IMG/VR virus record: IMGVR_UViG_2690316241_000020
Direction: 5' to 3' (one strand)
From: a virus
Lineage: Duplodnaviria; Heunggongvirae; Uroviricota; Caudoviricetes
DNA: 19,417 bases
Of this stretch, positions 16,489 to 16,930 are shown in pieces. The first letter of the stretch is position 1, and the number at the start of each line of letters is the position of its first letter. A program made the position numbers and the translations under genes. Below the pieces are notes generated by a model that did not search any database, had not been told where the DNA came from, and saw only the letters and a list, made by a program, of their open reading frames with translations.

Positions 16489-16685
16489 CCGGTGATAAAA
16501 AGAAACAGCCTGCATAATGCTTGATTTTTTTATTTGCTGTTTATTAAAAATACTACTGCATGGTGAATCCCCCTGTGCGGAGGGGCAATCAGCAAGTAGG
16601 TATATGTGATAATCGCGGATTCAGGTGCTGATACTGAATTCACCGGGAGGCACCCGGCACCATGCAAGAAAAAGAATGTGCATGC

Positions 16686-16716
16686 AAAAATGCCCCTCTC
16701 CGGAGGGGCATTTTTT
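16686..16716 (+). terminator. Strong intrinsic terminator, potentially bidirectional
   Basis: 8-bp G/C-rich stem TGCCCCTC / GAGGGGCA with TCCG loop, then TTTTTT; an A-run (16686-16690) precedes it. Confidence 0.7.
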
Positions 16717-16721
16717 ATGGG

Positions 16722-16747
16722 TAAAAAATGCCCGAATGGGTTCGGGC
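16722..16747 (-). terminator. Minus-strand-oriented intrinsic terminator
   Basis: Stem GCCCGAA / TTCGGGC with 4-nt loop. The flanking A-run at 16723-16728 becomes a U-tract only on the minus strand. Confidence 0.5.
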
Positions 16748-16930
16748 AATAGCATGAGATACTGATATTGTTGTGTTGTTATCGTGTGGATTTTAACCAG
16801 GGTTTATCAGGCTGCGCAACTGCGTGGCCTTCTTCATTTCTTGGGCTGTAGTCCCCGTGTGTCATTCAGGCTTCCGGACTACAGCCCACTCCATATCTGA
16901 TTTAATACACTATCCCGGCCGGGAGGAATA

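Follow-up and report, generated by a model that had tools for sequence, protein, structure and literature searches.

The 19,417-nt stretch of viral DNA analyzed here (IMG/VR record IMGVR_UViG_2690316241_000020; hereafter the window) is a lambdoid prophage, and the interval of interest, located downstream of the Q antiterminator gene and upstream of the phage esterase gene nanS-p and the lysis genes, is its moron-site small RNA (sRNA) module. The interval is probably best explained by two components together: a convergent pair of sRNA genes, STnc100 and AgvB (anti-GcvB), and a hairpin that would act as a cis-acting plus-strand stem-loop in the leader of the late nanS-p transcript. The sRNA pair is already described and curated, and the window carries an ordinary copy of this known module; the hairpin is undescribed and is a minor new lead. 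Neither sRNA is annotated by RefSeq in identical prophages, and identifying both corrects the view of the interval as unexplained. A sequence-only reading of the same DNA had stated that none of its elements is explained by coding sequence; this holds insofar as no conserved open reading frame (ORF) covers the interval, but two of the three elements are curated RNA families.

Scanning the whole window against Rfam at curated thresholds gave four matches, two of which lie in the interval: STnc100 on the plus strand and AgvB on the minus strand, each above its gathering score (Table 1). The STnc100 5′ end corresponds to the boundary of the Rfam model and not to a mapped transcription start. Because the two matches extend over the two facing terminators of the interval, the plus-strand terminator is the 3′ end of STnc100 and the minus-strand terminator is the 3′ end of AgvB. 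From these terminators the sequence-only reading had deduced a minus-strand transcription unit starting in 16750–16930 and divergent from nanS-p, which is borne out by the Rfam match to AgvB. A direct reading of positions 16200–17300 recovered every sequence feature it had listed, including the short hairpin CCCCTGTGCGGAGGGG at 16570–16585; its position was right, but it has no sequence relation to the longer hairpin discussed below, to which it had been called related, and is instead a conserved STnc100 stem. The 5′ region of AgvB, CGAUAACAACACAACAAUAUC, contains the GcvB R1 target motif CACAACA and is followed by the conserved 3′ part and a Rho-independent terminator, by the family criteria of Tree et al. 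(2014; PMC4104026). In the consensus scan, terminator-like sites occur at 5 per 1.5 kb, as against 1.8 ± 1.6 in shuffled sequence. Read relative to the 5′ end of AgvB, a putative promoter is found at 16790–16819; the consensus scan did not call it, and the segment ATTTTAACCAGG is conserved upstream of AgvB/AsxR-type genes in the alignment.

The published record of this module is substantial. Among the unannotated Hfq-bound RNAs of E. coli O157:H7 Sakai, AgvB (EcOnc01) is the most abundant, and in this strain its transcript was mapped by northern blot and 5′ RNA ligase-mediated rapid amplification of cDNA ends to a primary 5′ end whose position matches 16784 of the window (Tree et al., 2014; PMC4104026). 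The Sakai copies AgvB1 and AgvB2 are expressed as Hfq-bound RNAs of ~60 nt and relieve GcvB repression; the 5′ region bearing CACAACA pairs with the GU-rich R1 seed of GcvB, relieving repression of dppA (PMC4104026). In lambdoid prophages, convergent sRNA pairs lie downstream of Q and PR′, with moron genes on one side and a conserved phage ORF on the other, and the accompanying table places AgvB1 in Sp10, AsxR and its partner EcOnc27 (~235/247 nt) in Sp5, and EcOnc06 (~177 nt, homologue "5′ ECs1961") in Sp17 (PMC4104026). STnc100 copies are expressed in uninduced enterohemorrhagic E. coli (EHEC) EDL933, as seen by RNA-seq and, for one copy, by northern blot (PMC5331693); STnc100 has also been located downstream of stx2B (PMC12370729), and is related to PasD, which precedes the sialate esterase gene (bioRxiv 10.64898/2026.05.13.724894). 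The stx, nanS-p and lysis genes are transcribed in the Q-antiterminated late transcript (PMC12078605, PMC10462455).

The window copies fit this record closely. STnc100 and AgvB in the Sakai Sp10 and Sp17 loci (NC_002695.2, about 1941700–1942200 and 3486200–3486700, respectively), whose nanS-p homologues are ECs_1961 and ECs_3498, score the same as in the window, and the Sp17 interval, on reading of the sequence, is nearly identical to that of the window, hairpin included. EcOnc06 falls within STnc100 after a shift of ~+137 nt between Sakai genome versions (measured at AgvB1 and estimated at Sp17); the window STnc100 is equivalent to EcOnc27 of Sp5 and most likely to EcOnc06 of Sp17, and a reading of EcOnc06 as a plus-strand RNA ending at a further terminator closer to nanS-p (terminator 2, see below) was rejected on the same estimated shift. 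STnc100 was present in all eight scanned Stx (Shiga toxin)-phage and IMG/VR loci with the hairpin leader, and AgvB or AsxR exceeded threshold in half of them. No difference is detectable between the window copy and the AgvB family (RF02702; relatives AsxR, RF02703, and EcOnc03), with which it shares the consensus, CACAACA in the variable 5′ part, a conserved 3′ part with terminator, and the convergent position before nanS-p; it sits in a non-Stx lambdoid prophage. Like PasD2, the window STnc100 lies directly upstream of the esterase gene, and it ends at its own terminator (GCCCCUC...), whereas the related sRNA of loci that have no anti-sRNA is terminated by a homologue of the window's terminator 2. 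The architecture is that of the convergent pair of Tree et al. (2014, Fig. 4), with facing terminators, downstream of Q/PR′ and upstream of a conserved ORF that is nanS-p; neither terminator 2 nor the hairpin appears in its text or in the supplementary parts consulted (PMC4104026).

The hairpin had been described as a 12-bp perfect inverted repeat with a 21-nt loop. The repeat (arms GGGCTGTAGTCC, 16843–16854, and GGACTACAGCCC, 16876–16887) and the loop stood, but the repeat search extends the perfect stem to 13 bp (16842–16854 with 16876–16888). In the 19.4-kb window, perfect inverted repeats of 12 nt or more with arms within 60 nt number only three, the other two being the adjacent terminators, and by our estimate ~0.04 perfect 12-bp repeats would be expected there by chance. 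The sequence-only reading had proposed RNA structure prediction and a comparison with Stx and non-Stx prophages: the 49-nt hairpin RNA folds stably, at −28.0 kcal/mol (z = −6.0 against 200 dinucleotide shuffles), and the hairpin is found in 933W-type, BP-4795-type and many non-Stx leaders. It had also named generic repetition in the host chromosome as part of what would refute its interpretation; this is not what was found. Of 5426 complete E. coli genomes, 621 carry the type-A hairpin (defined below), in 1–7 copies (median 2); within the window the sequence matches only its own two arms; and all 158 oriented instances in viral contigs precede a nanS-p start (MTFKHYDV or MAFKHYDV) and follow terminator 2 or one of its variants, the exceptions to this context being one insertion sequence (IS) insertion and one contig end. 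A dispersed repeat of the repetitive extragenic palindrome (REP) or bacterial interspersed mosaic element type was rejected on this copy number and constant position before nanS-p. No credible Rfam 15 match to the hairpin was obtained at E ≤ 10, the sole overlap being a chance-level minus-strand Leu_leader (15 bits against 50, E = 3); the hairpin is unannotated in reference phages BP-4795, Stx2 II, phage 86, 933W and H-19B, and no description of it was found in the literature on nanS-p transcription or on stem-loops and terminators near stx/yjhS.

Between AgvB and the hairpin, and overlapping the putative AgvB −35 element, lies terminator 2 (AGGCTGCGC-AACT-GCGTGGCCT, then TCTTCATTTC), which the earlier list lacked. 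Its stem is nearly invariant across the 46 aligned leader variants described below; its U-tract is weakened in the window (UUCUUCAUUUC; TTCTTCATTTC) and in a minority of relatives, and reads TTTTT(T) in most variants. Its homologue, at loci that have no anti-sRNA, is the terminator of the STnc100/PasD-like sRNA itself. The hairpin and the nanS-p ribosome-binding site are separated by an A/U-rich spacer of about 30 nt. No nanS-p promoter was called on the plus strand of 16785–16930 by consensus scan, and inspection by hand found no conserved −10/−35 elements there. A coding explanation was rejected since the only ORFs over the hairpin, short GTG ORFs at 16784–16900 and 16824–16931, are broken by indels in alignments of related phages.

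Table 1. Positions, strands and bases of the features of the interval and of two further RNA genes, counted from the first nucleotide of the window.
Feature	Position	Strand	Description and basis
STnc100-family sRNA gene	16532..16722	+	Rfam RF02076; 146.2 bits, gathering score 47; model positions 1–206, full length, all consensus stems and terminator
STnc100 internal stem-loop	16570..16585	+	CCCCUGUGCGGAGGGG; aligned to paired consensus positions <<<<<______>>>>> of RF02076
STnc100 intrinsic terminator	16691..16716	+	Stem GCCCCUC / GAGGGGC, loop UCCG, then AUUUUUU; terminator scan (stem 16695–16708, then T-run), perfect inverted repeat, 3′ end of RF02076 match
AgvB anti-sRNA (anti-GcvB) gene	16784..16723 (5′ end 16784, 3′ end 16723)	−	Rfam RF02702; 96.5 bits, gathering score 56; 62/62 model positions equal to consensus
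AgvB terminator	Stem 16748..16729, U6 at 16728..16723	−	Terminator consensus scan
Putative AgvB promoter	16790..16819	−	−10 TAAAAT (plus-strand coordinates 16790–16795), possible TGn-extended variant; weak −35 TTGCGC (16814–16819); 18-nt spacer; read relative to 5′ end 16784
Terminator 2, intrinsic-terminator-like	16809..16842 (hairpin 16809–16830)	+	Stem AGGCUGCGC / GCGUGGCCU, loop AACU, T-rich run; terminator scan
Hairpin	16842..16888	+	13-bp perfect stem, 21-nt loop; nanS-p leader, 43 nt before start codon
Leader 3′ end	16913..16933	+	Mini-hairpin UCCC/GGGA (16913–16916 with 16921–16924) over Shine-Dalgarno sequence GGGAGGA (16921–16927); ATG 16931; RNAalifold; invariant in alignment
nanS-p ORF	16931–18781	+	Domains DUF1737, SASA, DUF6645
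DicF antisense sRNA	4403–4454	−	Rfam RF00039, 75.8 bits
sok antitoxin RNA (hok/sok type I toxin-antitoxin locus)	12735–12909	+	Rfam RF01794, 112.6 bits

Evidence that the hairpin is maintained as an RNA structure comes from comparison of leaders. Variants were collected from related phages, from the 80 IMG/VR loci with the closest NanS-p N-termini and from pattern scans of viral contigs, giving 47 distinct leaders, 46 of which were aligned. Type A (window, Sp17 and the Stx1 phage BP-4795) has the perfect stem UUGGGCUGUAGUCC...GGACUACAGCCCA; type C, of 933W-like Stx2 phages, reads GCGGGCUGUAGUCU...GGACUUCAGCCCGC, its stem having a U·U in the center and a U·G in the apical part and, at the base, an extension by C-G and G-C in place of the U-A of type A; types B, F and G read GCGGGCUGCGGUUC...GGACCGUGGCCCGC, ACUGGCAGUUGUCU...AGACUUCAGUCAGU and GUGGGCUAAGGUUC...GAACCUGUAGCCCGC, respectively; and type H has lost the 3′ arm by deletion and instead forms 7 new base pairs, GGCUGCA...UGCAGCC, with a different downstream segment. 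These six types fold to one hairpin shape, with z from −1.7 to −6.0. The tested structure comprised 23 pairs, drawn from the terminator 2 stem, the hairpin (14 pairs) and the mini-hairpin at the Shine-Dalgarno (SD) sequence, and standard pairs are formed in 92.7% of the cells across the 46 variants. Two-sided changes occur at seven pairs, all among the 14 of the hairpin; shuffles averaged 2.9 (0 of 500 reached 7), and each of six slid controls gave 0. Run unguided on the same alignment, RNAalifold returned terminator 2, the SD mini-hairpin and the hairpin, the last with an internal loop between 7 basal and 4 apical pairs. The arms (entropy 0.39–0.45) are about twice as conserved as the loop (0.94) and spacer; the loop is not conserved in sequence and ranges from 11 to 27 nt in length.

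The substitutions also indicate the strand. Non-Watson-Crick cells, read in the plus sense, number 62 G·U and 7 A·C, and the plus strand was as stable as the minus strand or more so in 8 of 8 variants tested, by 7–9 kcal/mol in type B. Together with the variable distance between the arms, this bias and this stability point to a plus-sense RNA structure and argue against a double-stranded DNA operator. The sequence-only reading had implied that the hairpin belongs to the minus-strand unit, which is not upheld: it lies 58–104 bp upstream of the AgvB start, and its substitutions fit a plus-strand RNA. A site acting as double-stranded DNA, either as an operator at which a dimeric regulator would control the AgvB promoter (with its center ~80 bp upstream of the start) or as part of a longer minus-strand transcript, is thus very improbable; its position at −58 to −104 from the AgvB 5′ end, its co-occurrence with anti-sRNA genes (detailed below) and the perfect arms of the window would suit such a site, but arm spacing of 11–27 nt would break a fixed protein geometry, the favored plus-sense G·U pairs are A·C mismatches on the other strand, and the arm sequences change by compensatory pairs. 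Also against this reading, the scan found neither a terminator nor a promoter-like site on the minus strand rightward of 16785, and the AgvB 5′ end was mapped as primary at the position matching 16784 (PMC4104026).

Several observations weigh against a maintained stem-loop. Counted as events, the ratio of G·U to A·C is only ~2:1 by our count, the A·C cells being rare singletons and the G·U cells being fixed in whole lineages; the covariation comes from some five lineages, which are not mutually independent; a U·U mismatch is fixed in the stem throughout the large Stx2-phage type; and one-sided disruptive changes are present in several variants (GGGCTGTT, GGACTG, GGGCCG, GGGCTA). The mismatch and the one-sided disruptions indicate that constraint on the hairpin is moderate. 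The alignment supports a plus-strand RNA element maintained by selection on pairing and not on loop sequence, across few independent lineages.

The same observations bear on the proposal that the hairpin has no present function and is a palindrome inherited with a cassette of sRNA 3′ end, anti-sRNA and leader, for example a decayed ancestral sRNA terminator that persists through phage relatedness. Most of the 46 variants differ little, the central mismatch of type C is fixed and several disruptions are one-sided, nanS-p works with two other, hairpin-less leaders, the cassette is one mosaic block, and related sequences can exceed shuffles without any structure, a documented caveat of the counting method. 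Such an origin is nonetheless unlikely, given that compensatory double changes occur at the seven pairs in at least four lineages (types A, B, F and G), that one lineage (L136) lost its 3′ arm and regained 7-bp pairing with a different downstream segment, that the arms diverge at about half the rate of loop and spacer, and that the slid-partner controls, which keep relatedness, gave no compensatory pairs.

The cassette-like behavior of the leader is apparent among the 80 closest nanS-p loci. The hairpin leader is found in 44; in 26, an STnc100/PasD-like sRNA runs straight into the terminator GGCUGCGC-AUG-GCGUGGCC-U8, without anti-sRNA and without hairpin; an A/T-rich leader of unrelated sequence is present in 9, and the one remaining locus has yet another. 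A convergent minus-strand terminator of the sRNA type lies upstream in all hairpin leaders with enough flank and in 0 of the 36 other loci. Terminator 2 and the hairpin are common to two unrelated anti-sRNA types, one AgvB/AsxR/EcOnc03-like and one with GCCCGCG...CGCGGGC, and the recombination joint is located at the anti-sRNA promoter. The two other, hairpin-less leaders occur with nanS-p genes at least 95% identical over the first 200 residues, which implies that the hairpin is not required for nanS-p expression, and hairpin and anti-sRNA genes may occur together simply because they are linked in a single exchangeable cassette.

On the whole, a cis-acting stem-loop in the late transcript is the most likely identity of the hairpin, and the following mechanism is proposed for it from the sequence. 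The hairpin would be produced only in rightward transcripts, in practice in the Q-antiterminated late RNA that starts at PR′ and passes the terminators; transcription mainly in this RNA is expected because no conserved promoter was found between terminator 2 and the hairpin. It would act in cis, as a structural barrier within the untranslated leader. The late transcript would hold a perfect 62-nt complement of the abundant AgvB RNA, so that a cut at or near the antisense segment is likely, with the duplex itself being cleaved or RNase E acting in the U/A-rich stretches on its flanks. The RNA left downstream would carry terminator 2 and the stem-loop at its new 5′ end, where they could shield the nanS-p-holin-lysozyme mRNA from 5′-end-dependent decay. 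This protective model would explain the restriction of the hairpin to leaders with a convergent anti-sRNA gene, which cassette linkage explains too.

Two further points count against protection by the hairpin: terminator 2 is already a 5′-proximal hairpin, which could make a protective role redundant, and a helix of 13–14 bp is short for an RNase III substrate, shorter than those of classical substrates. Comparison with protective 5′-UTR or intercistronic stem-loops of bacterial and phage mRNAs (such as the ompA 5′ hairpin, REP-type 3′ barriers and T7 RNase III-site hairpins) finds in common a stable stem, conservation of pairing and not of the loop, untranslated U/A-rich flanks and a polycistronic phage transcript. 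The window hairpin differs in that it is not at a mapped 5′ end and, in comparison with REP, in that it is not dispersed. The fuller proposal, in which terminator 2 and the stem-loop form an undescribed conserved cis-regulatory late-operon module of Stx and non-Stx prophages, coupled to the anti-sRNA such that antisense pairing of AgvB/AsxR triggers cleavage and the stem-loop sets the stability of the nanS-p-holin-lysozyme mRNA, is tentative and rather doubtful.

A role for the hairpin in termination or insulation is also unlikely. Here, the hairpin would join terminators 1 and 2 in keeping leaky rightward transcription (e.g., read-through from constitutive STnc100) away from nanS-p and the lethal lysis genes in the lysogen, acting as a pause, a weak intrinsic terminator or a Rho-dependent pause element in an untranslated C-rich leader that Q-modified polymerase passes. 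Its place directly after a terminator and before nanS-p, holin and lysozyme suits such a role, as does the better keeping of the basal G+C-rich helix (helix 2, 95% paired, against 83% for the apical helix), and STnc100 copies are expressed in uninduced EHEC (PMC5331693); the C/G ratio peaks at 1.5–1.6 over 16820–16912 and is below 1 on both sides. Many Stx2-phage variants of the hairpin carry a U-rich stretch after the stem (UCCUUAUUUUAC), but types B and G (AACUGUUGAGG) lack a U-tract at this place, as does the window (ACUCCAUAUC), for which the sequence-only reading had already noted its absence. The loop, at 21–27 nt in most variants, is far above that of canonical terminators; a canonical intrinsic terminator, with a loop of 3–8 nt and an immediate U-tract, was rejected for the window hairpin, on which the consensus scan makes no call. 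A stable hairpin within a Rho utilization (rut) region would hinder Rho loading, the excess of C over G is modest, and hairpin-less leaders (L048 type) manage with one terminator.

Control of nanS-p translation is quite improbable. The hairpin state would set ribosome access if CUUCCGG, on the 3′ side of the loop, or CUCC, after the stem, paired alternatively with the SD region CCGGGAGG; CUUCCGG (16871–16877) can form 7 pairs with CCGGGAG (16919–16925), the minimum-free-energy fold pairs CUCC (16890–16893) with the SD, and CUUCCGGAC and the SD mini-hairpin are among the most conserved segments of the leader. These anti-SD candidates, however, are lost in types B, F and G and show no covariation with the SD, the mini-hairpin is only 3–4 bp, and the predicted pairing of the SD varies among variants. 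Pairing of STnc100, AgvB/AsxR or DicF with the nanS-p leader gave duplex energies within 1.1 sd of those of shuffled sRNAs by duplexfold, which is crude for long RNAs.

Turning to the surroundings of the module, the Pfam gene order in the window is DUF968, RusA, Q antiterminator (PF03589, 14939–15760), DUF3927 (16357–16488) and NanS-p. About 7,700 homologous intervals were identified in complete E. coli genomes. E. coli RM14723 has an interval 100% identical to that of the window, in a prophage annotated with racR, dicB, hokD, Q, a TerB pseudogene, esterase, holin, lysozyme and lambda-like structural genes; the gene order is the same as in the window and no RNA genes are recorded in the interval. 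Terminator-like sites found by scan directly after Q, at 15794–15810 and 15841–15858, occupy the place at which tR′ is expected. The TerB-family moron gene is split into two plus-strand ORFs (15900–16217 and 16214–16360), the RM14723 counterpart being a pseudogene with an internal stop. The sok RNA lies at the place corresponding to hokD in RM14723, and DicF adjoins what is, by the RM14723 annotation, a dicB-type region (Table 1); with STnc100 and AgvB, the prophage thus has at least four curated RNA genes, none of them annotated by RefSeq. ARAGORN found no tRNA gene or remnant in the window. An imperfect inverted repeat of 33 nt (79% complementary; 7746–7812) with repeated TTGACCC motifs lies within a 325-residue ORF (7375–8352) that is a helix-turn-helix protein in the RM14723 annotation, and resembles the iteron/origin arrangement within lambdoid O genes.

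Some observations concern the sRNA genes themselves. The terminator tails of STnc100 and AgvB are mutually complementary (GGGCATTTTTTA / TAAAAAATGCCC, 4 nt apart; 16706–16733), so read-through of either sRNA would give 3′ ends complementary to the other. STnc100 contains GGGAGG (16645–16650) followed by ATG at 16662, which opens a 20-codon plus-strand ORF running through the terminator to TAA at 16722–16724; in EDL933 RIBOseq, some STnc100 copies have appreciable ribosome coverage (PMC5331693). Two tandem STnc100 copies precede nanS-p in phage phiSTEC1589-Stx1c (L008, 862–1348) and in E. albertii (L091, 222–879); the hairpin region of phiSTEC1589-Stx1c is strongly diverged and its pairing uncertain. 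Rearranged forms of the leader also occur: phage 06-3462 (L009, 1553–1640) has an IS3-family element between the hairpin and the nanS-p SD, two IMG/VR loci (L018/L020) have a 4-nt duplication in the hairpin 3′ arm (CAGCCAGCCC), and in another (L234) a deletion removes terminator 2 and the hairpin is kept. These IS3, duplication and deletion variants of the module could serve as natural mutants.

The STnc100-type/AgvB pair is a published means by which prophages rewire host sRNA networks, recovered here from raw sequence. The hairpin is found in 933W-type Stx2 prophages, BP-4795-type Stx1 prophages and many non-Stx prophages, and matters only if the fate of late mRNA is affected; were the coupled module real, lysis timing and toxin release would be affected in Stx phages. 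If the hairpin does affect late-mRNA fate, it would bear on the amount and timing of NanS-p, of holin and, indirectly, of Shiga toxin release.

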